Assembly: GCA_020058145.1 (NCBI GenBank)
Contig: JAGVEP010000409.1
Span: 1-34,741, forward strand
DNA length: 34,741 nt
DNA from: Phycisphaerae bacterium
Lineage (GTDB): Bacteria; Planctomycetota; Phycisphaerae; UBA1845; Fen-1342
Direction of reading: 5' to 3'
Part shown: positions 9,571-34,299 of the stretch, one piece after another
How positions within the stretch are numbered: the first letter of the stretch is position 1
How the letters are laid out: each line of letters starts with the position of its first letter
Made by a program: the position numbers and the translations under genes
The notes under the pieces: model-generated
Told to the model about the DNA's origin: nothing
Databases searched by the model: none
Seen by the model: the letters and a program-made list of their open reading frames with translations, nothing else

Positions 9571-9660
9571 CGTCGGACTCGGAGGTCCGACGCTACTATG
9601 CCGTCGGACTCGGAGGTCCGACGCTACTATGCCGTCGGACTCGGAGGTCCGACGCTACTG
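9571..9660 (+). repeat. Three head-to-tail copies of a 31-bp unit carrying a hairpin core (CGTCGGAC-tcggag-GTCCGACG); REP-like element, family A
   Basis: The unit cgtcggactcggaggtccgacgctactatgc occurs at 9571-9601 and 9602-9632, and as cgtcggactcggaggtccgacgctactg at 9633-9660. The array starts 1 nt after the kdsC stop and ends 34 nt before ATG 9695. Confidence 0.9.
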
Positions 9661-9694
9661 GACGCGCCGCGCGCGTCAGGCGAGGATTACCCGT

Positions 9695-12600
9695 ATGGCG
9701 CGAAACATCGTCCTGGCTGTCGCCACGCTGGCGGTCCTGGTGCTCGTGTTCGTCGGGTATGGATTGCTCGTCGGCACGCCGGCCGCGGAACACGCCGACC
9801 GGCGGGGTACCGAGCCGGTCCCACGGCACGAGCCGCCCACAACCGCACCGCTGAAGGTCGGCGACATGCTGACCATCCCCGCGGGCGGCAAGATCATGTT
9901 CCGCCGCTATGACGACAAGACCGGCCGGCCGCGCGACATGTTCCTGTGCCGCGATTGGCAGCCGGTGCCCGGCTCGAAGAACGAGATCCGCGTCGCGCAG
10001 CCCGAGTTGGCCATTCGGCTGCCCAGCGGCATGATCGCCACGATCTCCGCCGAAGAGGGACAAATCACGGTCGATCGGCTGGAGGAATCGCAAATGCGGC
10101 CCAAGCTCGGCCGCCTGGCCGGCGACGTGCGGATGGTGGTGGACCGCGATACCGGACTTGACCGCTCGCCTAAAGAGGAACGGCCTGAGGACCTGATCAC
10201 GATCGCGGTGCCGCAACTGACGTTCGATCTCGAGATCGGGGAGCTTAAGACAGACGATCACATTACGGTCGTTTCTGACGACTTCGAGATCGCCGGCGCC
10301 GGCCTGCACCTCATCTGGAACCAGATGGCCAATCGGATTGAGACCTTGACCATCGAGCGCGGCGAGCAGTTCGTGCTCTACGGCGCCGCGGGGCTGTTCG
10401 GCCTGCAACCCGGTCGCGAAACGGGCGAGACCAGCACGTCTGAGCCCGCCACCGCCCCGGCGGAAAAAGCCAAGCACCGGCAGCCCAGACGACCGCCGCG
10501 CCCGGCGACGGCGTATGATTGCCTGCTTACCGGCGGGCTCGTGGCCGAGCAATACCACGGCAGCGAGCGGGTCGGCGGGCTGGACGCGGACGAGGTGCAC
10601 CTGCTGTTCGACGTGGGCGGTGCCAACCGGCTGGTCAGGGCCAAAACCCCCACGACCACGGCACTTGGCGCGCACGGCGCGTCCAGTAGCGTCGGACCTC
10701 CGAGTCCGACGAGCCGCCCGGCGCGCGAGGAGCGTGATCGGCTGGTCGTACACTGGACCGGCAAGCTGCAACTCGGTCCGACGGAACCGCCGGGTGCGGA
10801 CGAGCCGCCGCGCCGTCGCTTCGAGGCGGTGGGGAACCCGGTCGTGCTGACGCGCGGCGATGGCACGGTGCGCTGCACCAAGGTGGTTTACCACGACGAC
10901 ACGCGGCGTGTGTGGCTCTATCCGACCGCTGGCGGCACGGTCGAGTTCGGCATGGGAGCGAACCTGTCGGCGTCGGCGGAGAGCGTGTTCATCGACCGCA
11001 ATGCGCGGATCGCCAAGCTGATCGGCAACGTCGAGTTGCGCTCCCGCCACGGCGGGACCCCGGCGGCCCGCGTTTCGTCGATCCGTAGCTCTTACTGGGC
11101 GGAATTGCACTTGGCTGAGTCGGCGGCCACCGGCGAAGTTGCCGACAGCGGTGCGCTGGTGGACGTGGGGCGGCTCGAGTCGGCCACGTTTGTCGGCGAC
11201 GTCCAGGTGGTCCTGAACGAGCAACTGCTCACGGCGCACCGGCTCGACGTGACGTTCAAAGCCGACGCCGCCGGGCGGTCGTTCGAGGAATCGCTCGATG
11301 GCGCGACGGCGAGCGGCAACGTGGTCCTGACCAGCGGGAAGGGACGGCTGGAAAGTGGCGAACTGGACCTGGCCTTCGCGCTGGCGCCCGAGCGCGGTCT
11401 GTATCCACGCCGGATGGACGCCCGTGGCGACGTGGTCATTCACCGCGACCGGGCCAGCATTCGCGGCGAGCATATTTCGGCCGAGCTCGAGCCGCCGCCG
11501 GCCGAGTCCGCTGACAAGCAGGCCGCGTTCGTGATGCGTACGCTCAGCGTGCGCGGCGATGCGGAGCTGATCGACCCGGATAACAAGACGGCGGCACGTG
11601 GACAGGAGATTACCGCCGAGTTCGAGGGACTGAATCGGCTTGCCACCGCGACTGTGAGTGGCGACGAGTCGCAACCCGGCTTGGTACACGCCCGGCCCTA
11701 CACCGTCAGCGGGAGGAAGGTCGAATTGGACCGCGGCGCGCAGACCATACACGTGGACGGTCCGTCGCGCCTCGCGCTGCGCACGCAACGAAGCCTGCAG
11801 GGCGAGCGGCGCGGCCAGCCCGTGCCGGTGATCGTCACGAGCGACCGCCTGCTGCACATCGACGGCCGGCGAAACACCGTCCGCTTCGAAGGCAGCGTGG
11901 TGGCACGCAGCGAAGAAGAGGAGCTGCGCGGAGACACCCTGGCGCTGCTGCTGGAAGATGTCGCCGACACCGCCGCGCCGGAATCCCGGCCCGCGTGGCA
12001 GGAGGCCTGGCACCAGATGCGCCGGGCGCTCGGCGCGGCGGACAAGCAGCGCTCGTCCGACGACCTCTTCGCGCTGCAAGCGGAGGATGAGCGCGAGAAG
12101 CTGCGCAAGGAACCCGTCCGGCTGACCGCGGACAACGCCCTCGTCACCAGCGAGACGTTCGAGGCCGGCGACGAACAGCCCGTGATGCACGCCAGCATCT
12201 CCGCCCCGCGGCTCGAGGTCGATATCGTGAGCCGCGAGATCATCACCACCGGCCTGACCGACCTGCTGATGACCGATCGCCGCGGCGTGCAGGATGCGGA
12301 CGCCGCCCGCGACGCGCTCGGTGTGCCGACCGCGCTGCTCAGCCGCGGACCGAGCCAGTCGGCCATCCGCTGCACGGGCCGCATGAGTTACACGCTCGGG
12401 CCGGACGGTCCGGACCGCCGCGACACAGTGATATTCGAAAACCAGGTCGTGTTTGTACACCGCACGGGCAAGGAGATGGTCAACCTGGCCGAGATGCTGC
12501 CGCAGGTGACGCAGAAGCCGGAGCTCCTCGATGCGCTCAAGAGCCGCAACGCCGCGCTCGATTGCGACCGGCTCGAGTGCTGGTTTGCGGTCGATCAGAA

Positions 12601-12916
12601 CGATCACACTCCGCGGCGTGGCGGAGCGTTGACGCGGGCGCCTCTGCGGCTGGCGTCGATGCTGGCGTCGGGCAGCGTGTACTTGCGGGACCAACAGGAC
12701 CCGTTGATTCGCGAAGTCAACGCGGGCTGGCTCGAGTTCAGTCGGGAGCAGAGCCGGATTCACGTGCGCGGCACGCCAGGGGCGGACGCCCGCGTGTACT
12801 CCCAGGACAAGAAGACCGGGCTGTTCGACGTACACGCCGGGCCGCAGCTCGTCATCAACCTGGCGGACGGGACGATTCGGTCGGATCGGATTGAAGGGGA
12901 AATGCGGAGGAAGTAG
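9695..12916 (+). CDS. Large membrane-anchored periplasmic protein with multiple OstA/LptA/LptC-like beta-jellyroll repeats (candidate fused LptC-LptA bridge protein)
   Basis: ATG 9695 lies 8 nt after GAGGA. The N-terminal TM anchor reads MARNIVLAVATLAVLVLVFVGYGLLVG. G-[NDS]-V-hydrophobic strand motifs recur with the periodicity seen in OstA_N domains: AGDVRMVV, IGNVELRS, VGDVQVVL, SGNVVLTS, RGDVVIHR, RGDAELID, EGSVVARS, ENQVVFVH, SGSVYLRD. The gene sits immediately downstream of kdsC. The ORF-track start at 9629 lies inside the repeat array. Confidence 0.6.
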   Translation: MARNIVLAVATLAVLVLVFVGYGLLVGTPAAEHADRRGTEPVPRHEPPTTAPLKVGDMLTIPAGGKIMFRRYDDKTGRPRDMFLCRDWQPVPGSKNEIRVAQPELAIRLPSGMIATISAEEGQITVDRLEESQMRPKLGRLAGDVRMVVDRDTGLDRSPKEERPEDLITIAVPQLTFDLEIGELKTDDHITVVSDDFEIAGAGLHLIWNQMANRIETLTIERGEQFVLYGAAGLFGLQPGRETGETSTSEPATAPAEKAKHRQPRRPPRPATAYDCLLTGGLVAEQYHGSERVGGLDADEVHLLFDVGGANRLVRAKTPTTTALGAHGASSSVGPPSPTSRPAREERDRLVVHWTGKLQLGPTEPPGADEPPRRRFEAVGNPVVLTRGDGTVRCTKVVYHDDTRRVWLYPTAGGTVEFGMGANLSASAESVFIDRNARIAKLIGNVELRSRHGGTPAARVSSIRSSYWAELHLAESAATGEVADSGALVDVGRLESATFVGDVQVVLNEQLLTAHRLDVTFKADAAGRSFEESLDGATASGNVVLTSGKGRLESGELDLAFALAPERGLYPRRMDARGDVVIHRDRASIRGEHISAELEPPPAESADKQAAFVMRTLSVRGDAELIDPDNKTAARGQEITAEFEGLNRLATATVSGDESQPGLVHARPYTVSGRKVELDRGAQTIHVDGPSRLALRTQRSLQGERRGQPVPVIVTSDRLLHIDGRRNTVRFEGSVVARSEEEELRGDTLALLLEDVADTAAPESRPAWQEAWHQMRRALGAADKQRSSDDLFALQAEDEREKLRKEPVRLTADNALVTSETFEAGDEQPVMHASISAPRLEVDIVSREIITTGLTDLLMTDRRGVQDADAARDALGVPTALLSRGPSQSAIRCTGRMSYTLGPDGPDRRDTVIFENQVVFVHRTGKEMVNLAEMLPQVTQKPELLDALKSRNAALDCDRLECWFAVDQNDHTPRRGGALTRAPLRLASMLASGSVYLRDQQDPLIREVNAGWLEFSREQSRIHVRGTPGADARVYSQDKKTGLFDVHAGPQLVINLADGTIRSDRIEGEMRRK
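10664..10711 (-). repeat. Inverted copy of the family A element plus 20 nt of the 9661-9680 leader, embedded in frame inside the Lpt-like CDS
   Basis: 10664-10711 (cttggcgcgcacggcgcgtccagtagcgtcggacctccgagtccgacg) equals the reverse complement of 9633-9680 at 45/48 positions. It is translated as LGAHGASSSVGPPSPT. Confidence 0.9.
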
Positions 12917-12944
12917 CGAGTGGCGAATAGCGAGTAGCGAGTTG
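12913..12944 (+). repeat. Tandem ~7-bp TAGCGAG-type repeats (about 4 units) just downstream of the argS stop, overlapping the stop codon of the Lpt-like gene
   Basis: The sequence gTAGCGAGtgGCGAATAGCGAGTAGCGAGttg is present. The 21-nt core at 12923-12943 recurs at 14926-14946 (20/21). Confidence 0.75.
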
Positions 12945-12955
12945 CTCCAACTCGC
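12937..12955. terminator. Small hairpin between the convergent Lpt-like gene and argS
   Basis: GCGAGTTG-ctc-CAACTCGC forms an 8-bp perfect stem. The loop is only 3 nt and there is no U-tract, so terminator function is uncertain. Confidence 0.3.
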
Positions 12956-12977
12956 CGCAGCGATTCGTGACTCGTCG

Positions 12978-14912
12978 CTACATTCGCTCGATCACCTCAA
13001 TCCCCAGCAGCCCCAAGCCGAGTCGCAGGGTTCGGGCCGCGAGGTCGCAAAGCCGCAGCCGGGACAGCCGCACCGCGTCGTCTGCGGCGAGCACCGGGCA
13101 CGATTCGTAGAAGCGCATGAAATCGGCCGCCAGTTCGTACAAGTAGGCACACAACGTGTGCGGCGTGAGGTTGCTCGCCACGTCGTCGATGGCCTCGCGC
13201 AGCCGTGCAAGGCGCAGGGCCAAGGCGCGTTCCGTGGGGTGGTCGAGGGCCAGTTTCACGTCCGGGGCATACACATCCGCCGTGCCGCCGCGGTCGACTG
13301 CCTTGCGGTAGATCGAGCGAATGCGCGTGTAGGCGTACATCATGTACGGGGCGGTATTGCCCTGCATCGCGAGCATCGTGTCCCAACTGAACACGTAATC
13401 GCCGTTGCGGTCACGGCACAGGTCAGCGTATTTCACCGCCGCGATTCCCACCCGCCGGGCGATATGGCGTCTTTCGTCGTCAGAGAGTGGCGCCGCGATT
13501 TCCCCCGCTTCGTGCCTGCGTGCCTCCGTGCCTTCGTCCCTGCTGCGAAGCAGCTCATAAGCCCGCGCTTCCGCCTCAGCGAGCAACTCCCGCAGCTTGA
13601 CGTTTTTCCCGTCGCGGGTCTTGAGCGGCCGACGGTCGCTGCCCAGCACGCTGCCATAGGTCACGTGCTCGACGCTCACGTCCGGCCCGACCCAGCCGGC
13701 CAGCCGTGCGCACTCGAAGAACATCTGGAAGTGCAGCTTCTGGCGGGCGTCCGTGACATAAATGACCCGCTGGGCGCCGCGCCCGGTCGGAAATTCCAAG
13801 TCGCGCAGGCGGAAGCGAATGGCCGCCAGGTCCGTCGTCGCGTACAGGTACGCCCCGTCCGACTTCTGAATGATCATCGGCAGATGACTGCCGTCGGGGG
13901 CCTTGAACCGCGGCTGGCCCTGCTCGTCGTACATGAACACGCACACCGCGCCCTGGTCGTCGCGCACTTCGGCCCGGAGACTGTCGCACTGGCTTCCAGC
14001 CGGTGAAAGCTCCTGCCTGAGTCCTGCCACGAGCGGTTCCAGGCGATCGTTGTAGAAGCTCTCGCCGCGCACGTCGTCCGGCGTGAGCAGTACCCCTAGC
14101 CGTGCGTAGATTTCCGTGAACGCCCGCCAGCTCTCGGCACAGATTTGCTGCCAGACGTGCCGGGCGACGGGGTCGCCGGACTGGAGCTGTCCGACGCACA
14201 GCCGGGCCTCGTCGGCAAAGGCCGGGTCCTGCTTAAACCGCTCTTGGGCCGCCCGGTAGTCGTTCTCGATCGCCTCCAGCACGTCGCCGTGCGTCGCGGA
14301 CGTGGGCAGCGGGTGCTCGCGATACCAGCGAATGAGCATGCCGAATTGCGTGCCCCAATCGCCGATGTGGTTCTGGCGGATCACGTCGTGCCCCTCGAAG
14401 GCGAGCGCGCGGGCGAACACGTCGCCGATGATCGTGCCGCGGAGATGCCCGACGTGCATCTGCTTGGCGATGTTGGGCTGCGAATACTCGACCACGACCC
14501 GCAGCGGTTGGGTCACCGGGGCCAAACCCACACGGTCGACGGGCGCGTGGGAATGTGGGAACGTGGGAACGTGGGAACAGAGTTCCGGCGCCGGAATCTC
14601 CGCCAAATGCCGTGCCAGAAACTCATTCCGCAGCCGAATGTTGATGAAACCCGGCCCGGCAACCTCCAGCGGCTCTACCACGTCGCCGAGCAGCGGCTCG
14701 ACGGCGGCCTTGATCCGCTCCGCGACCTCGCGTGGCTTGATCTTGAGGGTCTTCGCGAGCGCCATGGCGGCGTTGCACTGGTAGTCGCCGAACTGCGGGT
14801 CGCCCGCGAGCCGCAGGCCGGCGTCGGCAGGCACGGCCGTGGTACCCGCCACCTGCGCAAGCGCCGCGGCGAAGCGGGTGGAGAGCATTTGTTGCAGACT
14901 GTCGTGTTTCAT
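12978..14912 (-). CDS. argS: Arginine--tRNA ligase
   Basis: Motifs: HIGH motif region SQPNIAKQMHVGHLRGTIIGD, a KMSK-equivalent PLKTRDGKNVKL, a DALR anticodon-binding region, and the typical C-terminal ...LGLLGIEVIERM. Start taken at ATG 14912 (MKHDSLQQMLSTRFAAALAQ); the ORF-track start at 15053 adds an Arg/Pro-rich extension. Confidence 0.93.
   Translation of the reverse strand: MKHDSLQQMLSTRFAAALAQVAGTTAVPADAGLRLAGDPQFGDYQCNAAMALAKTLKIKPREVAERIKAAVEPLLGDVVEPLEVAGPGFINIRLRNEFLARHLAEIPAPELCSHVPTFPHSHAPVDRVGLAPVTQPLRVVVEYSQPNIAKQMHVGHLRGTIIGDVFARALAFEGHDVIRQNHIGDWGTQFGMLIRWYREHPLPTSATHGDVLEAIENDYRAAQERFKQDPAFADEARLCVGQLQSGDPVARHVWQQICAESWRAFTEIYARLGVLLTPDDVRGESFYNDRLEPLVAGLRQELSPAGSQCDSLRAEVRDDQGAVCVFMYDEQGQPRFKAPDGSHLPMIIQKSDGAYLYATTDLAAIRFRLRDLEFPTGRGAQRVIYVTDARQKLHFQMFFECARLAGWVGPDVSVEHVTYGSVLGSDRRPLKTRDGKNVKLRELLAEAEARAYELLRSRDEGTEARRHEAGEIAAPLSDDERRHIARRVGIAAVKYADLCRDRNGDYVFSWDTMLAMQGNTAPYMMYAYTRIRSIYRKAVDRGGTADVYAPDVKLALDHPTERALALRLARLREAIDDVASNLTPHTLCAYLYELAADFMRFYESCPVLAADDAVRLSRLRLCDLAARTLRLGLGLLGIEVIERM
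13511..13542 (+). repeat. Four tandem 8-bp units inside argS (CGTGCCTN type)
   Basis: The units are cgtgcctg|cgtgcctc|cgtgcctt|cgtccctg. On the minus strand they are translated within ...RSRDEGTEARRHEAGE..., a variable segment of ArgS. Confidence 0.85.
14547..14578 (+). repeat. Four tandem 8-bp units inside argS (GTGGGAAY type)
   Basis: The units are gtgggaat|gtgggaac|gtgggaac|gtgggaac. On the minus strand they are translated as ...CSHVPTFPHSHAP..., just N-terminal of the catalytic core (VVVEYSQPN...HVGH). Confidence 0.9.
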
Positions 14913-14913
14913 T

Positions 14914-14951
14914 GAGTTAAGAGTAGCGAATAGCGCGTAGCGAGTTAAGAG
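14914..14951 (+). repeat. TAGCGAN heptamer triplet bracketed by a 10-bp direct repeat (GAGTTAAGAG), immediately upstream of the argS start
   Basis: The sequence GAGTTAAGAG-tagcgaatagcgcgtagc-GAGTTAAGAG is present. The core at 14926-14946 (gcgaatagcgcgtagcgagtt) matches 12923-12943 at 20/21 in the same orientation. Confidence 0.8.
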
Positions 14952-15122
14952 GCCGTCCGCGGGGGACAACGACAATGCGAGGTTCGGGGGCTCGTCTTGC
15001 GGGGCGCGCGGGCGAGTCATACCATCCCCGCGGCGCGGCTTCGGCCGGCGCATGAACGCGGCGCACGCGGCTAGGAGGCGCTCCGTACACGCACGGCGGC
15101 CACAACGAGGAGTAATGGGGCC

Positions 15123-24403: not shown

Positions 24404-25377
24404 TCCCCCTCCGCCGGCCGGCCGGCGGGCGCGGGGAAGTTGATCCGCTCCCGTTCGACGACCAGCGGCCGTTTGCGCACCTGAAAATGGATGGCGCTGA
24501 TGTACTCACCGAGCACGCCGAAGAAGAAAAGCTGTATCCCGGCAAAGAAGAAGATCGCGACGATCAAGGTGGGGATGCCCGGCGCGCCGAGTTGGCCGAG
24601 GATCGCGTTCAGGATCAGCGTGGCGAAAGCATACAACAGGCTGAGCACCGCCAGCACGAACCCGGCCAACAGGCACAGCCGCATGGGCACGTTGGTAAAC
24701 GAAATCAGCCCATTCAGGCCCTGGTCAATCAGATGGTACAGGCGGTTCTTGGAGAATCCCCGGCGCCGGGCTTTCCAGGTGTACGGCACACCGACGGCGC
24801 GAAAGCCACAACTCGCGATCATGCCGCGGATGTAAGGATAATAGTCGTCGCAGGCGCGCAGCGCCTCGATGACCACCCGGTCGATGAGCTGAAAATCGCC
24901 GACGTTGAGCGGAATGTGAATACCGGCGCAGTAGTTCACGAGCCGGTAATACAGCCCCCGCACCGTCCGCATCGTCCAGCCTTCCTCGCGATTGGCCCGA
25001 ATGCCATACGCGACTTCGTGGCCGTTCTCCCAGTGGCGCACAAACTCCGGGATGACTTCGGGCGGGTCCTGGAGATCCACGGGCAGCAGCACGACCGCCG
25101 CGTCTCCGCGGGCACTCATCAGGCCGTTGAACGTCGAACAGGACGGGCCGAAGTTACGCGCGTTGACAATCACCCGGACACGCGCGTCGCTGGCGGCCAG
25201 CTCGCGCAGCACGGCGACCGTGCGGTCGCCCGACGCGTTGTCGCAGAAAATGTGCTCGTAGTCGTACTGCGGCAGCCCCGCGAAGACCCGCGCAACCGCG
25301 GCGTGACAGTCGCGCACGTTTTCCTCTTCGTTGTACACCGGGGTGATGACGCTGATGCACTTGGGCGCTGCGTTCAC
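24391..25377 (-). CDS. GT2-family polyprenyl-phosphate glycosyltransferase (GtrB/ArnC/DPM1-like) with two C-terminal TM helices
   Basis: GTG 25377 overlaps the upstream stop (GTGA). Motifs: ISVITPVYNEEENV, DNASGDRT, LPVDLQDPPE. The C-terminal helices read LCLLAGFVLAVLSLLYAFATLIL and IVAIFFFAGIQLFFFGVLGEYI. Confidence 0.85.
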   Translation of the reverse strand: MNAAPKCISVITPVYNEEENVRDCHAAVARVFAGLPQYDYEHIFCDNASGDRTVAVLRELAASDARVRVIVNARNFGPSCSTFNGLMSARGDAAVVLLPVDLQDPPEVIPEFVRHWENGHEVAYGIRANREEGWTMRTVRGLYYRLVNYCAGIHIPLNVGDFQLIDRVVIEALRACDDYYPYIRGMIASCGFRAVGVPYTWKARRRGFSKNRLYHLIDQGLNGLISFTNVPMRLCLLAGFVLAVLSLLYAFATLILNAILGQLGAPGIPTLIVAIFFFAGIQLFFFGVLGEYISAIHFQVRKRPLVVERERINFPAPAGRPAEGDQAG

Positions 25378-26297
25378 GTGGCTCTCCCCTTGAGCGTCAC
25401 GAGCACCAGGTCGAGCAGCGTGCCATCCTGGTCACGCAGGTACGCCTGGCTGCCGATGCGCTCGCGGATTTGATCTGGGGACCCGAAGCGGGCAAATGGC
25501 CCATGCGCCCCCGCCAGTTCGGCGAGAACCTCCGCGACGGCCGAGCCCAACCCGCCGATGATGCTGTGTTCCTCGACCGTGACGACCCCGCCGGTCTCGT
25601 GCGCCGCCGCTGCGACCGCCGCGGTATCGAGCGGCTTGAGCGTCGGCATGCTCACGACCCGGGCTTCGATGCGATGTTGTGTCGCCAGCCGGCCGGCGGT
25701 CTCCATGGTGTACGCCAGCGTCGCGCCCGTCGAGATGAGCGTCACGTCGCGGCCCTCGCGCAGCCGCAGCGCGCGGCCAATCGCGAAATCCGGCGGATTC
25801 TGGTGCACCACGGTCTCGCGTGCCTTGCCGAGCCGCAGATAGCACGGTCCCGGCCAGTTGACGAGCGCGCGGGTCGCCAGCGCCGTCTCGACGGGGTCGC
25901 CCGGGGCCAGGACGGTCATGTTCGGCAGGGCCCGCATGACGGCGAGGTCTTCGAGGCCGTGGTGCGTGTAGCCCTGCGGCCCGTAGGCGAAGCCGCCGCC
26001 GACGGCGACGATTTTGACCGGCAGTTCGTGGTAGCAGACGTCGTTGCGAATCTGCTCCAGGCAGCGGATCGTCGGGAAATTGGCAATGGAATAGGTGAAA
26101 ACGATGTGGCCGCAGCTCGCCACGCCGGCCGCCACGCCGGTGAGGTTCTGCTCGGCGACGCCGACGTTGACGTAGCGGGTGGGAAAACGCGCGAAGAAGC
26201 GTTCGAGCACGGAATACCCGAGGTCTCCGGAGAGCAGCCAGATACGCGGGTCCTGGCTCGCCAGCTCGCAGAGCGTGTTGATGAACGCCGTTCTCAC
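25374..26297 (-). CDS. Transketolase, C-terminal (pyrimidine-binding + C-terminal domain) subunit of a split transketolase
   Basis: 307 aa. Motifs: RTAFINTLCELASQDPRIWLLSGDLGYS, NVGVAEQNLTGVAAG, GPQGYTHHGLEDLAVMRALPNM. There is a 4-nt overlap with the N-terminal subunit gene. Confidence 0.88.
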   Translation of the reverse strand: MRTAFINTLCELASQDPRIWLLSGDLGYSVLERFFARFPTRYVNVGVAEQNLTGVAAGVASCGHIVFTYSIANFPTIRCLEQIRNDVCYHELPVKIVAVGGGFAYGPQGYTHHGLEDLAVMRALPNMTVLAPGDPVETALATRALVNWPGPCYLRLGKARETVVHQNPPDFAIGRALRLREGRDVTLISTGATLAYTMETAGRLATQHRIEARVVSMPTLKPLDTAAVAAAAHETGGVVTVEEHSIIGGLGSAVAEVLAELAGAHGPFARFGSPDQIRERIGSQAYLRDQDGTLLDLVLVTLKGRAT

Positions 26298-27118
26298 GCC
26301 TGTTCCCCCAGTTCCGCCAGCGCCGCCGCCAACTGCTCGTCGTTGGGCGACTGGTAATGCCAGGCCAGTTGATTTTCCATGAAGCTCACGCCTTTGCCCT
26401 TGACCGTGTGCGCGATGACGACCGATGGCCGGCCTGGCTGGAAGGGCACGGCCCCGAGCGCGGCGTGAATCTGGGCATGGTCGTGGCCGTCAAGCTCGCG
26501 GACCGCCCAGCCGAACGCCCGCCACTTGTCCGCCAGGGGTTCCAGGTCGAGCACTTCCTTCACGGTCCCGAAGCTCTGAATCTTGTTGTAGTCGATCACG
26601 GCCACCAGGTTATCCAGGCGGTGATGCGGGGCGAAGAGAACCGCCTCCCAGGTGGAACCCTCGTCACATTCGCCATCGCTGAGCTGGACAAACGCACGAA
26701 ACTCCTGGCCAGCGCGCTTGGCCGCGAGCGCCACGCCACAACCCAGCGAGAGACCATGACCGAGGGAGCCCGTGGAGAAATCCACACCGGGAACATGGCG
26801 GGAAACGTGTCCTGCCAGGAGGCTGCCGTCGTCGCAGTAGCCGTCGAGCCAGGCGTGCGGAAAGAAGCCGCGCTCGGCGAGCACGGCGTACAGGGCGGCG
26901 GCGCCATGCCCCTTGCTCAGGACGAAACGGTCACGGGCCGGCCAGTCCGGGCGCCGGGGCTCGACACGCAGCACGGAGTGGTAGAACACGGCCAGCAGAT
27001 CCGTCATGCTCAGGCAGGTGCCAATGTGCGACGCCTTGGCGTGGTGCACCATGCGCACGGCGCGCGCGCGGATGCGCCGGGCCAGCGGAATCGTCGTGTG
27101 GGTGTTGTCAGTCGCCAC
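26294..27118 (-). CDS. Transketolase, N-terminal (ThDP-binding) subunit of a split transketolase
   Basis: 274 aa with a GTG start at 27118. Motifs: ASHIGTCLSMTDLLAVFY, LSKGHGAAALYAVL, SLGHGLSLGCGVALA, LSDGECDEGSTWEA. Confidence 0.88.
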   Translation of the reverse strand: MATDNTHTTIPLARRIRARAVRMVHHAKASHIGTCLSMTDLLAVFYHSVLRVEPRRPDWPARDRFVLSKGHGAAALYAVLAERGFFPHAWLDGYCDDGSLLAGHVSRHVPGVDFSTGSLGHGLSLGCGVALAAKRAGQEFRAFVQLSDGECDEGSTWEAVLFAPHHRLDNLVAVIDYNKIQSFGTVKEVLDLEPLADKWRAFGWAVRELDGHDHAQIHAALGAVPFQPGRPSVVIAHTVKGKGVSFMENQLAWHYQSPNDEQLAAALAELGEQA

Positions 27119-28070: not shown

Positions 28071-28078
28071 CCGCGGCC

Positions 28079-29326
28079 TCAGAGCAGTTCCAACAAAGAG
28101 ACGAGCTTGCCGCCGCGCTCCCGGAACTTCGCCAAGCTAGCGCAAATCTCCTCGTAGTACCCGAACGAGAACACGACCAACTCGTCGACCGGGTTGTCGA
28201 GGGCGTGTTGTGGCGGCACGACCGGCACGTGCGCCCCGGGTGTGTAAAGGCCGTGAAAGCTGGGATTCTGGTCGCACACATAGGCGAAATCGCCGGGCTG
28301 GGCACACGCCGCCAGGGTCATGACTCCCCGCCCACCCGCACCGTAGCCGGCCAACCGGCAGCCTTTCGCACGCTGCGCCCGCACATGCGCACGCAGCTTC
28401 TCCACACTCGCCCTGACCGCCGCGCCAAATGCCGTGAAAGTCTCCGGCCGGCCGAGCGCACCGGCGTCTAGCGTCGGCAAGGCGCGGGATGCGTACGCGG
28501 ACCCGCGCAGTGTCGCGCTGACGAGCAGGGAATTCGCCCGGCGGCGCTGCTCGGGCAACAACTCCACGTCGAGGACCTCAAAGCCTGCCCGTTGCAGCAA
28601 GGCCTGCATGGTCGCCGCGCAGCAGTAGGTGGTGTGTTCGTGCTCGAACAGGCAGAACTCGCGCCGCTCGACGATCTTCGCGAGGTCGTGTACCTCGAGC
28701 AGCAGCACGCCCCGCCGCGGGTCCAGCACCCGGCGCACCGCGGCCAGAAAGTCCATTGGGTCCGGCAGGTGGTCGAAGGTGTAGCACAGCAGCACCAGTT
28801 GCACCGGCAGACAGTCGGCGGGGATGTCCCGCTCGGCCTGGTGGTCGAACAGGCGCAGCGCCACCGGAATGCCGTTGCGGCGTGCTCCCGCTACCAGCGG
28901 TGCCGACGGTTCGAAACCGAACACTTTGGCGCCCAGCCGCTGGAAAAACGCGAGTTGGGCACCGTCGCCGCTGCCGATCTCGACCACGGAGTCGCCGGGC
29001 CGGAGCTCGAAGTGCCGCCACGCTTCCTCAGCCAGTTCCCGCATGAACCGGCTGACGAAGCCTGACGCCGACGTGGTATAGGTGTATTCGTTGTAGTAAG
29101 CCCCCATGTCCACGTCGTGCAGGGTCTGGCAAACCCCGCAGCCCGCACAGCGGAATATCTTGATCGCGCAGCGGAACTCCTGCCCGAGCCGGGCCTCGGA
29201 GAGGAAGGCGTCGGTGAGCGGCATATCCGGTAACTCGAGGAAAGCGTCGAGTCGGTCCGAGCCGCACACGCGGCAGTTCTCTCGGTAGGTCACATTGTTG
29301 CCCAAATGCCACTCCTGACGGTTCAT
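28079..29326 (-). CDS. NDP-hexose C-methyltransferase (TylCIII-like: N-terminal Zn-ribbon + class I SAM MTase + C-terminal C-methyltransferase domain)
   Basis: Zn-ribbon CRVCGS...FRCAGCGVCQT, SAM motif VVEIGSGDGAQL, and a long C-terminal domain as in sugar 3-C-methyltransferases. Confidence 0.8.
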   Translation of the reverse strand: MNRQEWHLGNNVTYRENCRVCGSDRLDAFLELPDMPLTDAFLSEARLGQEFRCAIKIFRCAGCGVCQTLHDVDMGAYYNEYTYTTSASGFVSRFMRELAEEAWRHFELRPGDSVVEIGSGDGAQLAFFQRLGAKVFGFEPSAPLVAGARRNGIPVALRLFDHQAERDIPADCLPVQLVLLCYTFDHLPDPMDFLAAVRRVLDPRRGVLLLEVHDLAKIVERREFCLFEHEHTTYCCAATMQALLQRAGFEVLDVELLPEQRRRANSLLVSATLRGSAYASRALPTLDAGALGRPETFTAFGAAVRASVEKLRAHVRAQRAKGCRLAGYGAGGRGVMTLAACAQPGDFAYVCDQNPSFHGLYTPGAHVPVVPPQHALDNPVDELVVFSFGYYEEICASLAKFRERGGKLVSLLELL

Positions 29327-29350
29327 GGGAGCATGTGTGCCGAGCCGTAC

Positions 29351-30442
29351 TTATTGGACAACCTCGTACGCCGCAATATCACCCAGGCTGGCCCGCCGCA
29401 TGTCCGGGCGGGCGTCACCGTGGGCCAGGCGATACCACGTCGCGGTTCGGCGGACGGCCTCGGCGACGTTCCACCGCGGCCGCCAGCCCAGCCGGCCAAT
29501 GGCTTTGTCGATGGACAAGCGCAACAGGCCCGCCTCGTGCGGCTGCCGGTGGTCGCTCTTGTCCTCCCACGACCCGCCGCCCCATGCTGAGACGAACAGG
29601 TCGACGAGCTGCCGCACCGGGATGTCATCGCCCGGCAGCGGCCCGAAATTCCAGGCCTCACACCAGACCGGGTCGTCCGACGCCAGCAGCCGCGCCGCCA
29701 GGGTCAAGTAGCCGCTGAGCGGCTCCAGCACGTGCTGCCACGGCCGGACCGCATGCGGATTTCGTACCGGCACCGGTCGCCCGGCGGCGAGCGCCCGAAC
29801 CGCGTCGCACAGGATACGATCCTTGGCCCAATCGCCGCCGCCGATCACGTTGCCCGCGCGGGCCGTCGCCAGTTTCACGCCATGCTCGCCCAGCCGTAGC
29901 GGCGAGAAGAACGAGTGCCGGTACGCAGCGGTCACGATCTCCGCCGCACCTTTGCTCGCACTATATGGATCATGTCCGCCCATTGGGTCGCATTCGCGAT
30001 AGCCCCAGACGTGCTCGCGGTTCTCGTAGCACTTGTCGCTCGTGACGACGACGACCACGCAGGGCTTGCCGCGGGCGCGGATGGCCTCCAGCACGTTCAC
30101 GGTCCCGAGAATGTTGGTCTCAAATGTCTCGCGGGGGCGGTCGTAGCTGTCGCTGACCAGCGCCTGGGCCGCCAGATGAAACACGATGTCGGGATCGGTA
30201 GCTTGCAAGGCCTGTGCGACGCGCGCCGCGTCACGCAGGTCGGCCTCGTGGTGTGCTGCCAACAAGTCCCGCACACCGGAGACGACGAAGTTGCTCGGCT
30301 CGGTCGGCGGCGGGAGCGCATAACCCGTCACGCGCGCCCCCAGCCGGTGCAGCCAGACCGCCAGCCACGAGCCCTTGAAGCCCGTGTGGCCGGTCAGAAA
30401 AACGGAGCGCCCCCGAAAGGCGTCGGCGAAGGCCGCGCTCAT
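29351..30442 (-). CDS. rfbG: CDP-glucose 4,6-dehydratase
   Basis: ATG 30442 overlaps the rfbF stop (ATGA). Motifs: FRGRSVFLTGHTGFKGSWLAVWL, YSASKGAAE (YxxxK). The ORF-track start at 30601 is an extension into rfbF. Confidence 0.9.
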   Translation of the reverse strand: MSAAFADAFRGRSVFLTGHTGFKGSWLAVWLHRLGARVTGYALPPPTEPSNFVVSGVRDLLAAHHEADLRDAARVAQALQATDPDIVFHLAAQALVSDSYDRPRETFETNILGTVNVLEAIRARGKPCVVVVVTSDKCYENREHVWGYRECDPMGGHDPYSASKGAAEIVTAAYRHSFFSPLRLGEHGVKLATARAGNVIGGGDWAKDRILCDAVRALAAGRPVPVRNPHAVRPWQHVLEPLSGYLTLAARLLASDDPVWCEAWNFGPLPGDDIPVRQLVDLFVSAWGGGSWEDKSDHRQPHEAGLLRLSIDKAIGRLGWRPRWNVAEAVRRTATWYRLAHGDARPDMRRASLGDIAAYEVVQ

Positions 30443-31215
30443 GTCCACACCTTCCACGGCGCCTGGCCCGCGTCCCACATGTCGTTGAGGGCCTTGTACT
30501 CGCGGTACGTGTCCATCGCGTAGAAGAACCCGTCGTGACGGTGGGCCATTAACTGCCCCTCGTGCGCCAGCCGTTCCAGCGGGGCCCGCTCCAAGATGCA
30601 ATCATCTCCGACCAGGTAGTCGAACACTTGGCGGCGGAACACAAAGAAGCCGACATTCACCCAATGTTCCAACCGCGGCTTCTCGCGAAACTGCCGCACG
30701 CAGCCGGCGTCGTCCAGGTCCAGGATGCCGTAGCGCGTTTCGGGCCGCACGGTGGTCAGCGTCGCGAGACGGCCATGCCGGTGGTGGAAAGCGACCAATT
30801 CGGCGATGTTGAGGTTCGAAAGCCCGTCGCCGTAGGTCACGAGAAAGTCATCGCCGTCGATGAACGGCTCGATGCGTTTGACGCGGCCCCCGGTCATGGT
30901 CTCAAGCCCGGTATCCACGAGGGTGACGTGGAAGTCCTGCTCGTCGTGCGCCCCGTGGTAGGTCGTCACGTGCTTGTGGCCGAGGTTGATGGTGAAGTCG
31001 TTGTTGAACGCCTCGTAATTGAGGAAGTACTCCTTAATCATGTGGCCGCGGTACCCCAGGCACAGCACGAACTCGCGGTAGCCGTAGTGGGCAAAGAGCT
31101 TCATAATGTGCCAGAGGATCGGCCGTTGGCCGACGTCGACGAGTGGCTTGGGCCGGAACTCGGTTTCCTCGCGGAGCCGGGTACCCAATCCGCCGCACAG
31201 AATCACGACTTTCAT
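30439..31215 (-). CDS. rfbF: Glucose-1-phosphate cytidylyltransferase
   Basis: MKVVILCGGLGTRLREETEFRPKPLVDVGQRPILWHIMKLFAHYGYREFVLCLGYRGHMIKEYFLNY is the canonical RfbF N-terminus. 258 aa. Confidence 0.93.
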   Translation of the reverse strand: MKVVILCGGLGTRLREETEFRPKPLVDVGQRPILWHIMKLFAHYGYREFVLCLGYRGHMIKEYFLNYEAFNNDFTINLGHKHVTTYHGAHDEQDFHVTLVDTGLETMTGGRVKRIEPFIDGDDFLVTYGDGLSNLNIAELVAFHHRHGRLATLTTVRPETRYGILDLDDAGCVRQFREKPRLEHWVNVGFFVFRRQVFDYLVGDDCILERAPLERLAHEGQLMAHRHDGFFYAMDTYREYKALNDMWDAGQAPWKVWT

Positions 31216-31407
31216 GCGTGTGTTCTCCGGCCGCGAGACGCCGAGCGCAGCGCCTGGTGATCCAGGTCCCGGGCACTCGCCATGACTCGCGGAGCATACT
31301 CGAAAGCCGACCTCGGCAGTAGCGCCGCTTCAGGCCCGCAGCGCACGCGCGGTCCGCGCAGCTTCGGACGAGATGAAATGAGCGAGCAAGACCACGGTTC
31401 CAAATCA

Positions 31408-31453
31408 CCGGGTGGCCTGGGCGTCCCGCCCCGGGTGGCATGGGCGTCCCGCC
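31408..31453 (+). repeat. Tandem 23-bp duplication at the 5' end of the VKOR-DsbA gene
   Basis: ccgggtggcCtgggcgtcccgcc (31408-31430) and ccgggtggcAtgggcgtcccgcc (31431-31453) match at 22/23. The single C>A difference creates ATG 31440. Confidence 0.9.
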
Positions 31454-33422
31454 CGTGAACACGACGGGCAAGATGCCCGCAGTACCCATCGGCCGCGCGA
31501 TTCGCGTGTTGGGTGCGATCTGCCTCGTATTGTGCGTCGGCGCTGCACTCGCGCTCGTGCTCGAGCACCTCGTCGGGCTGCAACTGCCCGGCTGCGGGGC
31601 GGGCAGTCCCTGTGCGAAGGCCAGCGCGAGCGTTTGGGGCAAGGTGCCGTACATAAACTGGCCGGTTTCTTTCCTCGGACTCGCGTATTTTCTGGGTTTG
31701 CTCGTGGCTTGGCTCGCCGCGCGCGGTAGCGTGTCCGGTGCCGCGCGTTGGGTGATCCGCCTCGGCCTGCTGCTGTCGCTGGGGTTCACAGTCGTCATGT
31801 TCGCAGGCGGCTACGTCTGCCCGTACTGCCTCGCGACGCACGCTGGGAACTTGGTCTTCTGGTTGTGCATGGAATTCGGCACCCGTGCCGCACCGGTGGG
31901 TCGCCGGCCGCTGACGGCGCTGGTGGCCGTCTTCGTGTTGTGCTCCGCGGTGCTCGGTGGCGCCGAATGGCGCGGCCGCGCGCGGGCGCGCACGACCGCG
32001 GAAAGGGAAATGCAAGCGTCCGAGGCCGCCATCTTGTCCGCGTCGACGCAGCCCGATGCGGGCAGCAGCGACAAGAACGAATCCGTCAATACCGCGCCGA
32101 GGGAAGCCGTCGCTGAGGCGGGGGTGCGAGAAAGGATTCTCGCACCAGCCGCCGTCGCTGAGGCGGGGGTGCGAGAAAGGATTCTCGCACCAGCCGCTGG
32201 GGTGCGAGAAAGGATTCTCGCACCAGCCGTTCTCGCACCAGCCGCGGGCTTCACCGGGCGCTGGCGGCTCGGTCCGGAGGCGGCCCCCATCCGAGTCGTT
32301 CTGTTCATGGACTACCAGTGCAAGGGCTGCCACCTCATTGAGCTGGAACTCAAGAAGATCATGGAGCAGCACCCGGACATTTCCCTATCGGTCAAGCACT
32401 GGCCGGGGGGCTCGGAGTGCAACCCCAACCCAGCCGAGCGTGAGCACATCTACGCATGCGCCGACGCGCGCGCCGCTGAGGCCGCCGGCATCCTGCACGG
32501 CAACGACGGCTTCTGGAAGCTGCACTTTTGGCTCTTCGGCAAGAGTGGACGCGCAACGGATGCGGACTTCCGGGCGGCCTGCGCCGAGTTCGGTTGGGAT
32601 GCCGACGAATTCGACCGCGTCCGCCACAGCGACGAAACCCAGCGCCGGATCGAAGCGGATGTCGTCGAAGGGTTCAGCTTGGGTCTCTCCTCCACGCCGA
32701 TGGTTTTCATTAACGCCGTCGAATTCAAGGGCTGGGCGGCGCCGTTGGGGCTGACGCGGGTCGTGGACGCCATCAGCCAAAAGGACCTGCCCGCCAAGAC
32801 GGCGGCGAGTGACCGTGCCATGCCGGCGAAGGAGTCGTTCATATTCCAATGGCGTCAGGCGAAAGCTCGCGATCTGCCGGCGACCGCACAGGCCTGGCCG
32901 CGCGGGCCGGCCGCCGCCAAGCTCAAAATCGTCGTCTGGGGCGACTACCAGCAGCCCAACACGGCCCTGGCGGACCGCATCATTCGCGAATTCAGCGCCG
33001 CGCGGAGCGACGTGCAGTACACGTTCCATCCCTACCCGCTCAATCGGGGTTGCAACGTCTCCGCGAAGGAAGACGAGTACCCGTCGGCCTGCCGCGCCGC
33101 GCACGCCGCACAGGCGGCCGGTCTGCTGGCCGGGGCGGACGGATACTGGAGAATGCACGACTGGCTGCTGAAACACCAGGCGGATTTCAGCGACGACACA
33201 CTACGATCCGCGGCCGTCGAGCTGGGCCTCGATCCCACTGAGTTGTTTTCCCGCATGGACAACCCGGCGGTCAGCGCCGCGATCGCCGAAGTGGCCCTCG
33301 CCGGCAGTCAAGCCGGGCTCCAGCACAGTCCGCTGATGTTCCTGAACGGCAAGATCGTGCCCCGTTGGCTGCACGGCAAGGAACCCGTGTTGCGGGCGAT
33401 CCTTGATGCCGCCGCCGAATGA
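31440..33422 (+). CDS. Vitamin K epoxide reductase (VKOR) membrane domain fused to two thioredoxin/DsbA-like domains, the second lacking CxxC
   Basis: VKOR: GCGAGSPCAKASASVWG...CPYCLATH within TM helices. Trx domain 1: FMDYQCKGCHLIE...ECNPNPAEREHIYACADARAAEAAG. Trx domain 2: WGDYQQPNTALAD...GCNVSAKEDEYPSACRAAHAAQAAG. The start may instead be ATG 31473 (MPAVPIGRAIRVLGAICLVL). Confidence 0.82.
   Translation: MGVPPVNTTGKMPAVPIGRAIRVLGAICLVLCVGAALALVLEHLVGLQLPGCGAGSPCAKASASVWGKVPYINWPVSFLGLAYFLGLLVAWLAARGSVSGAARWVIRLGLLLSLGFTVVMFAGGYVCPYCLATHAGNLVFWLCMEFGTRAAPVGRRPLTALVAVFVLCSAVLGGAEWRGRARARTTAEREMQASEAAILSASTQPDAGSSDKNESVNTAPREAVAEAGVRERILAPAAVAEAGVRERILAPAAGVRERILAPAVLAPAAGFTGRWRLGPEAAPIRVVLFMDYQCKGCHLIELELKKIMEQHPDISLSVKHWPGGSECNPNPAEREHIYACADARAAEAAGILHGNDGFWKLHFWLFGKSGRATDADFRAACAEFGWDADEFDRVRHSDETQRRIEADVVEGFSLGLSSTPMVFINAVEFKGWAAPLGLTRVVDAISQKDLPAKTAASDRAMPAKESFIFQWRQAKARDLPATAQAWPRGPAAAKLKIVVWGDYQQPNTALADRIIREFSAARSDVQYTFHPYPLNRGCNVSAKEDEYPSACRAAHAAQAAGLLAGADGYWRMHDWLLKHQADFSDDTLRSAAVELGLDPTELFSRMDNPAVSAAIAEVALAGSQAGLQHSPLMFLNGKIVPRWLHGKEPVLRAILDAAAE
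32106..32243 (+). repeat. Tandem array (45+45+33+15 bp) of a hairpin-containing unit (GTGCGAGAA-agga-TTCTCGCAC) inside the VKOR-DsbA ORF; family B
   Basis: The unit gccgtcgctgaggcgggggtgcgagaaaggattctcgcaccagcc occurs twice (32106-32150, 32151-32195). Truncated units follow at 32196-32228 and 32229-32243. All lengths are multiples of 3. Translation: AVAEAGVRERILAPA x2, AGVRERILAPA, VLAPA. Confidence 0.92.
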
Positions 33423-33428
33423 CGGGGA

Positions 33429-34190
33429 TCAGACCGCGAGCACGTCCGTGACGTGATAACGGCTCGTCGTGTACAGGGGGTAATCATGACCCAGTTCGCG
33501 CCGCAACGTCTGCAGCGCAATGTCCGGGTGGTTGTTGTGCGCACTCAAGTGCGCCATGGCGACCCACTTGGGCCGCTGCCGCCGACAGCGTTTGAGCAGC
33601 GCGGCGGCCTCGTCATTCGAGAGGTGCCCGCTGTCGCCCCGGATCCGTGCCTTCAACTCCGGCGGGTAGGAGCCCTCCGCGAGCATCTGCGGGTCGTAGT
33701 TCGTCTCCAGATACGCGGCGTCAAGCTCGGCCAAGGCGGTCGCCAGCTCGGCGAAAGGATGTCCCAGGTCGGTCAGGATGCCCAGGCGCTTTTGCTCGCA
33801 GGTGACCACAAACGCCACACTTTCGGCGGCGTCGTGTGGCGTGGGCAGGGTGTGGACGCGGACCGAGCCGAATGCGAGCGTCTGGCCGGGTCGAAAATGA
33901 TGGACGTTGCCGAGCCGGCCCGTGTGCCGCGTGATGGCGTGGTGCGTGGCCGGCGTCGCATACAGGGGGAGCTTGAATAGCCGCTGAAAAACGCCGGCGC
34001 AGGCGGTGTGATCACGGTGGCGGTGTGAGAGGATCACGGCATCCACCTGGCGGATATCACGTCCGTGGGCGGCCATCCGCTCCTTCGCCTGGGCCCCCGA
34101 GATGCCGGCGTCGAAGAGGAGGCGCGTACCGGCGGCCTCGACGTAAATGCAATTCCCGTTGGACCCGGATTGGAGCGCGAAGGTCAGCAC
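33429..34190 (-). CDS. MBL-fold metallo-hydrolase (PhnP/YycJ-like)
   Basis: GTG 34190. The sequence MLTFALQSGSNGNCIYVEAAGTRLLFDAG...AVILSHRHRDHT shows an HxHxDH-type motif. 253 aa. Confidence 0.82.
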   Translation of the reverse strand: MLTFALQSGSNGNCIYVEAAGTRLLFDAGISGAQAKERMAAHGRDIRQVDAVILSHRHRDHTACAGVFQRLFKLPLYATPATHHAITRHTGRLGNVHHFRPGQTLAFGSVRVHTLPTPHDAAESVAFVVTCEQKRLGILTDLGHPFAELATALAELDAAYLETNYDPQMLAEGSYPPELKARIRGDSGHLSNDEAAALLKRCRRQRPKWVAMAHLSAHNNHPDIALQTLRRELGHDYPLYTTSRYHVTDVLAV

Positions 34191-34232
34191 CCGGTCATTA
34201 TAGGGCTACTGGCTCGCGCGCGTCCGCGTTTT

Positions 34233-34262
34233 TTGACAGTCGCCGGGGTCCGGCGGTAAGAT
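34233..34262 (+). promoter_or_regulatory. Candidate sigma-70-type promoter for the gene starting at 34335
   Basis: TTGACA (34233-34238) - 18 nt - TAAGAT (34257-34262). The family A hairpin begins ~10 nt downstream, at the predicted 5' end of the transcript. Confidence 0.45.
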
Positions 34263-34272
34263 GTCTTTGCAG

Positions 34273-34299
34273 CCGTCGGACTCGGAGGTCCGACGCTAC
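34273..34299 (+). repeat. Single copy of the family A hairpin element
   Basis: ccgtcggactcggaggtccgacgctac is identical to the core of the 9571-9660 units and in the same orientation. It lies in the 5' leader of the downstream gene. Confidence 0.9.

Follow-up and report, generated by a model that had tools for sequence, protein, structure and literature searches.

The stretch of DNA analysed here, 34,741 nucleotides with a G+C content of 66% (contig JAGVEP010000409.1 of the Phycisphaerae bacterium assembly GCA_020058145.1; hereafter the window), contains two families of short hairpins, A and B, together with arrays of 7- and 8-nucleotide (nt) units in and around argS, the gene of arginyl-tRNA synthetase. 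Family A is a repetitive extragenic palindromic (REP) element of the GTAG type, with a cognate REP-associated tyrosine transposase (RAYT) in a related genome, and family B is likewise a RAYT-associated REP element. We consider it probable that A and B are REP elements with RAYT clades of their own, and that the arrays form a separate, slippage-type class of short tandem repeats. An earlier interpretation of the same DNA, made from the letters without database searches (the sequence-only reading), had proposed at least six unrelated repeat families and an active repeat-generating or repeat-inserting process of a kind it did not recognise as described; overall, this interpretation is partly supported.

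All the repeats that it listed were found at their coordinates, and their chance expectation is about nil in shuffles and in Markov simulations. When tandem repeats were called with Tandem Repeats Finder (TRF), three period-7/8 arrays with a score of at least 45 were observed in the window, compared with 0 of 200 third-order Markov simulations of it; for long-period repeats with a score of at least 80, the corresponding figures were four and 0 of 200. A scan of the whole window at Rfam gathering thresholds gave no match to the curated covariance models. Homologues of its ArgS and VKOR-DsbA proteins bear the names Phycisphaerae or Planctomycetota in their sources, in line with an origin in a Phycisphaerae-like member of the Planctomycetota.

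Repeat features of the window and their host genes (strand as +, - or. for a feature given without one)
Feature	Coordinates	Strand	Remarks
Three tandem identical REP-A copies, CGTCGGAC-TCGGAG-GTCCGACG-CTAC, period 31	9571..9659	+	TRF 2.9 copies, 100% matches
Lpt-like gene (LptD_N-type domain)	9696..12916	+	host of intragenic REP-A
42-bp (14-codon) in-frame insertion, Lpt-like gene	10668..10709	-	clean gap in L104, flanks conserved
Long imperfect hairpin, convergent Lpt-like/argS spacer	12904..12990	.	-44.2 kcal/mol, z = -4.39, 87 nt
argS, arginyl-tRNA synthetase, 644 aa	12978..14912	-	host of two octamer arrays
Octamer array (AGGCACGR) x4.1, argS aa 457-468 (SRDEGTEARRHE)	13511..13543	-	TRF period 8
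Octamer array (GTTCCCAC) x4.1, argS aa 112-123 (CSHVPTFPHSHA)	14546..14578	-	TRF period 8
argS 5' leader, mRNA strand CTCTTAAC-(TCGCTAC-like)x3-TCTTAACTCA	14913..14951	-	directly before ATG 14912
Local 23-bp tandem duplication	31408..31454	+	TRF period 23, 2.0 copies, 95% matches
VKOR-DsbA fusion gene	31440..33422	+	host of REP-B array
Small hairpin, GTAC tail (GGGCAAGATGCCCGCAGTAC)	31466..31485	+	5' end of VKOR-DsbA open reading frame
114-bp (38-codon) in-frame insertion, VKOR/DsbA linker	32120..32233	+	absent in P0122/L106
Single REP-A copy	34274..34299	+	spacer between MBL-fold gene (33429-34190, -) and next open reading frame

Family A is built on the 22-mer CGTCGGACTCGGAGGTCCGACG, which occurs five times exactly in the window (9571, 9602, 9633 and 34274 on the plus strand, 10690 on the minus strand), compared with 0.02 times in shuffles. 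Its full conserved unit is 26 nt long, ends in CTAC and forms an 8-bp stem with a 6-nt loop. The tandem triplet starts directly after the TAA (9568-9570) of a KdsC-like gene and precedes the Lpt-like gene; since the start of the latter, which had been placed at 9629, is corrected to the ATG at 9696, the triplet is intergenic. When the 20-nt core was scanned against one genome per species, at least 103 loci were found, none of the 103 listed overlapping the window beyond the REP itself, and related Planctomycetota metagenome-assembled genomes (MAGs) hold at least 160 exact copies, mostly arranged as inverted doublets that face outward. Among the matches listed, the groundwater Planctomycetota MAG JACRLV01 is the main source (126 copies on 72 stretches), the other carriers being CAZNFA01, CAYMXT01, BTUU01 and several Phycisphaerae bins. 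Across 157 oriented copies, conservation is limited to the hairpin and the 3' CTAC (the latter at 92-100%), the further flanks being variable, and the reverse complement thus reads as GTAG followed by the palindrome. A stem variant with a compensatory change (CGTCGGGC..GCCCGACG) is found in CAYMXT01 (contig L054). The close pairs among the listed matches in relatives comprise 22 in the '-+' arrangement, none in '+-' and 21 in direct orientation; the '-+' pairs have their heads outward with a spacing of mostly 42-44 or 32 nt, and resemble REPIN doublets. Exact A copies were also seen on two short contigs, L023 in a bin labelled Desulfurellales and L027 in a bin labelled Reyranella, which probably reflect mis-binning and, less likely, horizontal transfer.

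Family B has a 10-bp stem and a 4-nt loop (GGTGCGAGAA-AGGA-TTCTCGCACC), and its core GTGCGAGAAAGGATTCTCGCAC occurs exactly three times in the window (32124, 32169 and 32202) against an expectation of 0. The metagenome scan returned at least 120 contigs with a G+C content of 57-71%, from which the conserved unit is tgGGTGCGAGAAAGGATTCTCGCACCAGCg with the conserved flanks tgG...CCAGCg. A second hairpin sharing the AGGA loop is a frequent 5' neighbour, and an extra copy of the 3' arm often trails the element, exactly as the partial 3' half-copy does at 32225-32243 of the window. Viral carriage of B was looked for in IMG/VR, with no match. Both families therefore extend beyond the window, genome-wide and in several genomes, as the sequence-only reading had anticipated. 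A CRISPR array was ruled out by the spacing of the tandem copies, the spacers of the A triplet being an identical 5 nt and the B units abutting. Next to RAYT-flanking B copies, on L217 (769-830) and L132, lie tandem repeats of the B 3' arm and tail (a 16-nt unit three times and an 11-nt unit three times) that resemble the partial arm of the window.

RAYT-like genes had been named as something to search for, and four were found, one flanked by A and three by B. The A-linked gene, in a related genome (CAYMXT01, contig L054, open reading frame (ORF) 2199-2735, minus strand), is similar to E. coli RayT (2.9e-7), scores 33 bits with Pfam Y1_Tnp (cut-off 23) and 85.1 bits with the NCBIfam equivalog NF047646, 'REP-associated tyrosine transposase' (cut-off 80), and is bracketed by A copies that include a tandem run of four. 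The B-linked genes, on metagenome contigs of other organisms (L168, L179 and L217), score 104.8-114.2 bits with NF047646, and each flank of these genes holds B hairpins together with companion hairpins. The RAYTs of the two types share only 25% identity, so that these are two REP-RAYT pairs. Such arrangements suggest that the RAYTs move the A and B elements, and the window's own genome presumably encodes cognate enzymes.

The mobility of A and B was deduced by genome comparison. The closest comparator is a syntenic relative from JGI sample 3300036760 (contigs L104 and L106), which is 85-87% identical to the window at the nucleotide level. The A triplet is missing from the orthologous spacer of L104, and no A or B copy is present in the 44 kb of L104 and L106. 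Neither the A array nor the 42-bp and 114-bp inserts occur in this relative, so that the two inserts are lineage-specific in-frame insertions; the clean gaps in L104 and L106 bear out what had been suspected of the intragenic hairpin copies. A repeat-inserting process does exist in the lineage, and for the hairpins it is probably that of REP and RAYT.

The 42-bp insertion consists of REP-A (10686-10711, minus strand) and about 16 nt matching the 3' flank (9659-9675) of the intergenic copy, and is translated as ...GAHGASSSVGPPSPT.... It could be a composite unit that has moved or a local template-switch copy, and template switching explains it as well as transposition does. The sequence 9661-9677, ahead of the Lpt-like start, forms a native hairpin with a 7-bp stem (GACGCGC-CGC-GCGCGTC) that is conserved in L104 as well; REP-A has inserted right beside it, and part of the hairpin has been co-copied into the Lpt-like gene. 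The 114-bp insertion in VKOR-DsbA (fold z = -5.65) contains B copies at 32123-32146, 32168-32191 and 32201-32224, and TRF reports nested periods of 45, 33 and 15 at 32106-32244. Its length can be accounted for if a 31-bp element took the place of about 10 bp and the segment then grew by three tandem duplications, of 45, 33 and 15 bp, each step being a multiple of three.

In all intragenic copies in the window the reading frame is open, and all lie in variable regions, as was claimed from the sequence and is now seen in orthologue alignments and in the low model confidence of the ArgS sites described below. Elsewhere, by a crude ORF heuristic applied to the matches listed, 19 of 143 A copies (~13%) and 32 of 112 B copies (29%) lie inside coding-like ORFs. 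Host genes with Pfam domains on both sides of the insert encode a Mo-oxidoreductase, tripeptidyl peptidase II (TPPII), AcrB, an aconitase-family protein, transketolase, an ImuB-like protein, ValS and a NapH-like protein. The last of these, a NapH-like Fer4 membrane protein of CAZNFA01 (L022 673-2487), has A and B copies in one loop, its B copy bearing the VLAPA partial arm as in the window. A fused transketolase (L210 171-2294) has a B copy exactly in its inter-domain linker; in the window, transketolase is split into two adjacent genes at 25374-27118, one N-terminal and the other pyrimidine-binding/C-terminal. A TPPII-like peptidase (L089 1167-5207) combines an A insert with a perfect tandem triplication of 30 bp (10 aa, SERAAQASAH).

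The intact frames, and the occurrence of arrays at the same protein positions in orthologues, could also be taken to mean that the intragenic repeats are selected peptide motifs and that the DNA repetition is secondary. What is conserved, however, is the DNA. Family A is translated as SVGPPSPT, VGLGGPT or SDSEVRR, and family B as VRERILAP, GARKDSRTS or CEKGFSH, depending on frame and orientation in the host; since one DNA element gives such different peptides, selection is not acting on a peptide motif. Orthologous MurD proteins likewise differ at their array site (GTKARRPGGTEG vs GAKGSRDQGLKG), the sites in ArgS are the lowest-confidence loops of its model, and close relatives are entirely without the A and B inserts. 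We therefore find selected peptides a most improbable explanation.

A second alternative would do without a transposase and derive all the repeats, A and B included, from slippage, hairpin-induced template switching and ectopic recombination. It draws on the local events in the window, namely the 31-bp triplication, the 45/33/15-bp nesting and the 23-bp duplication, and some further observations weigh against assigning A and B to REP elements moved by RAYTs. The intragenic A copy is inverted and carries 16 nt of flank from an intergenic copy only 1 kb away, no RAYT gene was found in the window, and the window's own A copies are direct tandems and singletons, inverted doublets being absent there. 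In addition, neither GTAG nor CGTC, the tags that define the published REP super-families, is present in the conserved flanks of B, so that B, although RAYT-associated, stands outside both. A transposase-free origin nevertheless leaves unexplained the sharing of identical 22-26-nt units by hundreds of loci that are unlinked and lie in many genomes, the doublet asymmetry of 22 '-+' to 0 '+-' and the bracketing of each of the four RAYT genes by the matching family, and we regard it as very unlikely.

The likeness of A and B to published REP elements is close. The GTAG and CGTC super-families of REPs are known from eight phyla, including Planctomycetes, and in the planctomycete R. baltica a number of REP families coexist with 'a plethora' of tyrosine transposases (Di Nocera et al. 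2013, PMC3733652). Intragenic, codogenic REPs are most numerous in Opitutus terrae, of the PVC group, and in R. conorii, and also occur in Thauera, and the Rickettsia palindromic elements RPE-4 and RPE-6 have been classed as CGTC REPs (PMC3733652). Since multiple REP families and in-frame REPs have already been published (PMC3733652), A and B belong to a described type of element; with their RAYTs, their coexistence and their in-frame copies, they do not amount to the undescribed phenomenon that had been suggested. The word 'unrelated' used for the families holds for their sequences but not for their kind, A and B being the same type of element.

As in the REP/REPIN-RAYT systems (E. coli REPs and BIMEs with RayT, Pseudomonas REPINs and the GTAG families), the unit is a GC-rich palindrome of 20-40 nt, present in hundreds of dispersed copies that are mostly extragenic and near gene 3' ends (PMC3733652, PMC3116915), with inverted doublets, several families per genome, RAYTs bracketed by their own REPs and occasional in-frame copies. 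A and B differ in being new sequence families in uncultured Phycisphaerae-like planctomycetes; B is untagged and has the recurrent extra 3' half-arm, and identical A and B cores occur across many different metagenomic organisms and are not species-specific. The intragenic fraction given above also looks high, on its crude heuristic.

Rickettsia palindromic elements share with A and B the nature of palindromic selfish DNA lying in frame in genes, housekeeping genes included, where they add surface or loop peptides while function is kept. RPE-1, reportedly described by Ogata et al. in 2000, is said to measure 100-150 bp and to be restricted to Rickettsia. The A and B elements are 26-31 bp long, belong to Planctomycetota and are RAYT-associated, so only the in-frame behaviour is shared.

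We propose that the RAYTs would recognise the A and B palindromes as single-stranded hairpins and copy them. New copies would land mostly between genes, and those within genes would persist only where they lengthen a flexible loop by a multiple of three bases and bring in no stop codon. Tolerated in-frame insertion of this sort may have given the Lpt-like gene its 42 bp and VKOR-DsbA its 31-bp seed, which would then have grown by the local 45-, 33- and 15-bp tandem duplications. An uncultured planctomycete lineage thereby gains two REP families, probably paired with separate RAYT clades. REPs routinely enter conserved enzymes in frame there, which bears on gene calling, on alignment 'insertions' and on MAG proteins that are outliers in length (such as ArgS, 614-928 aa). 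The presence of the same 22-nt cores in many metagenomic organisms is unusual for REPs, and bears on the persistence or transfer of REP-RAYT pairs.

In addition to the hairpins, argS carries two octamer arrays, which are the least explained part of the window and for which the suspicion of the sequence-only reading is still reasonable. The array at aa 112-123 (site 1) occupies the linker that joins the N-terminal domain to the catalytic one, and arrays of its unit stand at the same position in three of the orthologues (L104, L107 and L109). An AlphaFold2 model of ArgS, with a mean predicted local distance difference test (pLDDT) score of 82.8, has only two segments below 50, residues 116-123 and 468-471, and these overlap both arrays (the second, site 2, at aa 457-468). 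Both sites are rich in indels in the orthologue alignment. In the lineage, ArgS varies in length from 614 to 928 aa (P0001-P0120), with the variation confined to a few loops, some of which contain recognisable hairpin- or array-derived peptides, for example DVASAPRGRR and GIEGSRDQ.

Both sites were compared in the DNA of five orthologues. At site 1, the unit of the window, (GTTCCCAC) x4.1, recurs in L104 (diverged, x2.8), L107 (x4.2) and L109 (x7.2), and L108 has (GGGATCRA) x4.2. Related units are found at site 2, where the AGGCACGR of the window corresponds to a partial array in L104, which has 24 bp more, to (AAGGGACG) in L107, to (AGCGACGA) in L109 and to (AGGGATCG) x10.5 in L108. The remaining orthologue, L110, has no array at either site and carries (CGTTCCCA) x4 at a third. 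Since the units at site 2 differ between orthologues by 1-2 substitutions that are common to all units of an array, they fit homogenisation driven by slippage.

The same units are met elsewhere. (AGGCACGR)n occurs in ArgS, in MurD, in a ClpB-like AAA_2 domain (13 copies), in two further ORFs and in 10 IMG/VR contigs; (GTTCCCAC)n is found at two separate ArgS sites as well as in a pyruvyl transferase, and ValS also hosts an array. In murD, which adjoins argS, arrays lie at the same residue (~aa 135-148) in L107 (8082-8120) and L108 (9441-9478). The octamer arrays of argS belong to a class of 7/8-mer arrays that is spread throughout the lineage. In a census by TRF over 1.66 Mb of fetched DNA, period 7 was the most frequent array class (53 per Mb), followed by periods 8 (34), 6 (25), 9 (14) and 3 (8). 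The arrays show a secondary length mode at ~30-35 nt for periods 7 and 8, partly shaped by the detection threshold of TRF, and many of the intergenic ones are inverted pairs that fold into long hairpins. The literature gave nothing specific on in-frame octamer arrays in housekeeping genes.

Two candidate origins of the arrays were rejected. Their derivation from REP heads or tails (GTAGCGA resembles the GTAG head, and AGCGACGA the B tail) finds no spatial association, since the number of arrays with an A or B REP within 100 nt, 7 out of 145, is no higher than the 7.4 expected. G-quadruplex formation, an idea that follows Rehm 2015, fails as a general cause: GTGGGAAC, GGGATCRA and AAGGGACG offer four GGG tracts, but such tracts are lacking in AGGCACGR, AGCGACGR and the AT-rich intergenic units.

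We take slippage to be the probable driver of the arrays, which would expand, contract and homogenise, most likely during replication, and would persist in genes only where they fall in loops. Slippage alone is insufficient for two observations, and these count against placing the arrays wholly in that class. One is the recurrence of the same octamer units in genes and genomes that are unrelated; the other is the use in L108 of a single unit, GGGATCRA, at the MurD site and the two ArgS sites, each of which has a unit of its own in L107. The alternative is that the 7/8-mer arrays are a separate self-propagating or templated class, A and B still being REP elements with RAYTs. Arrays about four units (~32 nt) long, of a unit peculiar to the genome, would then be seeded or overwritten at many loci, loops of essential genes included, through conversion between arrays or by an enzyme. 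The MurD orthologues of L107 and L108, which are 82% identical, would fit such a process, their array flanks being ~95% identical while every unit differs (AGGCACGR vs AAGGGATC), as would the resemblance of the L108 unit at ArgS site 1 to the reverse complement of the unit in other genomes, the predominance of a different unit in each MAG and the length mode just mentioned. No candidate enzyme or template was found, however; the arrays show no proximity to the A and B REPs, the differences at ArgS site 2 are explained by vertical descent with homogenisation within arrays, the length mode is in part that of the threshold, and the comparison covers few genomes and three orthologous sites. We thus look on self-propagating arrays as unlikely, albeit the alternative to be taken most seriously. 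The fuller claim, that they are a distinct, actively propagating system of this lineage and some viral contigs that reaches fixed surface loops of essential enzymes (ArgS, MurD, ValS, ClpB-like) among its many loci and depends neither on RAYT transposition nor on simple slippage in place, we would put slightly lower again.

Contigs classed as viral, L115 (IMGVR_UViG_3300017448_000088), L116 and L120, are dense in 7/8-mer arrays, of which L115 has ~20 within 10 kb; many are nested inverted pairs. The contigs could come from planctomycetes and have been misclassified, or belong to phages that share the repeat style of their hosts.

It may also be asked whether the arrays are artefacts, since metagenome assembly is the source of the window and of every comparator, and assemblers can collapse or expand short tandem repeats. 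Every array is shorter than a read, however, the frames are intact, arrays recur at orthologous sites in independent JGI, ENA, NCBI and Logan assemblies, and A and B are found on hundreds of independent contigs; an artefact is scarcely credible, and is the least probable of the explanations considered.

Among known systems, the arrays come closest to the heptamer simple sequence repeats, such as the cyanobacterial STRR repeats, TAACTGA and GGGNATC. TAACTGA repeats lie just upstream of start codons, and units of the NAACTGA type are hosted by Beggiatoaceae, cyanobacteria and Bacteroidetes (MacGregor 2015, PMC4679880), while GGGNATC arrays occur in Xanthomonas and Nostoc with a preference for four units (Rehm 2015, PMC4692102). 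The features in common are genome-wide arrays of 7-nt units with about four units preferred and period 7 as the commonest class; frequent placement just upstream of starts or after stops may be another. In this lineage, however, octamers almost match heptamers in number, essential genes (ArgS, MurD, ValS, ClpB-like) contain many in-frame arrays, many intergenic arrays are inverted pairs with hairpin arms of ~30 nt, and the units are genome-specific and mostly do not form G-quadruplexes. Heptamer arrays of the NAACTGA type were also seen in a Planctomycetales MAG (L098 1675-1727) and on an IMG/VR contig (L117 3504-3529).

Contingency-locus microsatellites and variable-number tandem repeats are similar in being intragenic arrays of short units that change in copy number, as the 24 bp between the window and L104 illustrate. 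With an 8-nt unit, though, a change by a single unit would shift the frame, and every array seen keeps it. The essential housekeeping hosts and the in-frame state of all the arrays therefore indicate purifying selection and not phase variation. Lying at fixed loops but with units that differ from genome to genome, the octamers offer a compact, testable case of concerted repeat evolution in essential genes.

The heptamers on either side of argS had been counted as further products of recent repeat generation or insertion, and on both sides the comparison points elsewhere. The 5' array is part of a conserved leader with the consensus CTTAAC-(TCGCTAY)x3-TCTTAACTC, which is present in 6 of 6 orthologues with at least 67% amino acid identity (besides the window, L104 9962-10000, L107 8672-8710, L108 9960-10000, L109 133-172 and L110 88-126). 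Upstream of it the sequence cannot be aligned and even the upstream gene differs among the six genomes; in more distant orthologues the leader is degenerate or absent. It is predicted to be unstructured (z = -0.68). A degenerate TCGCYAY/GCGARTR family is present in several MAGs, and 6 of 14 strict (TCGCYAY)n arrays lie before an ORF start, five of these being the argS leader itself. One heptamer array thus seems to have become fixed as a conserved leader, whose position and conservation make it a candidate for a new element of cis-regulation or translation initiation.

On the 3' side, the array forms an arm of the long hairpin between the convergent Lpt-like gene and argS, so that another heptamer array may be said to build the stem of a convergent-gene hairpin. 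The left arm is a (TAGCGAG)-type array (12912-12942; TRF period 7, 4.4 copies) and ends in a GTAG-headed 7-bp hairpin (12934-12954), for which no family was found in the 1.66 Mb. The right arm is an imperfect complement that overlaps the argS stop codon. An equivalent hairpin in L104 is made from a different heptamer, GAGTTCY (z = -4.45).

Near the 5' end of the VKOR-DsbA gene, the 23-bp tandem duplication, which had been listed as a repeat family, is a local event, with no relatives in the 1.66 Mb. It overlaps the annotated ATG (31440), and so lies at the extreme 5' end of the gene or in its 5' untranslated region and in no linker, and it sits at a synteny break with L106, the two sequences not being syntenic upstream of VKOR-DsbA. 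Downstream of the MBL-fold gene, where the window has its single REP-A copy, L106 carries a transposase of the IS630-like type with helix-turn-helix (HTH) and DDE_3 domains (12876-13926). The small hairpin at 31466-31485 has one near-identical copy, with a CTAC tail, in the CAZNFA01 MAG.

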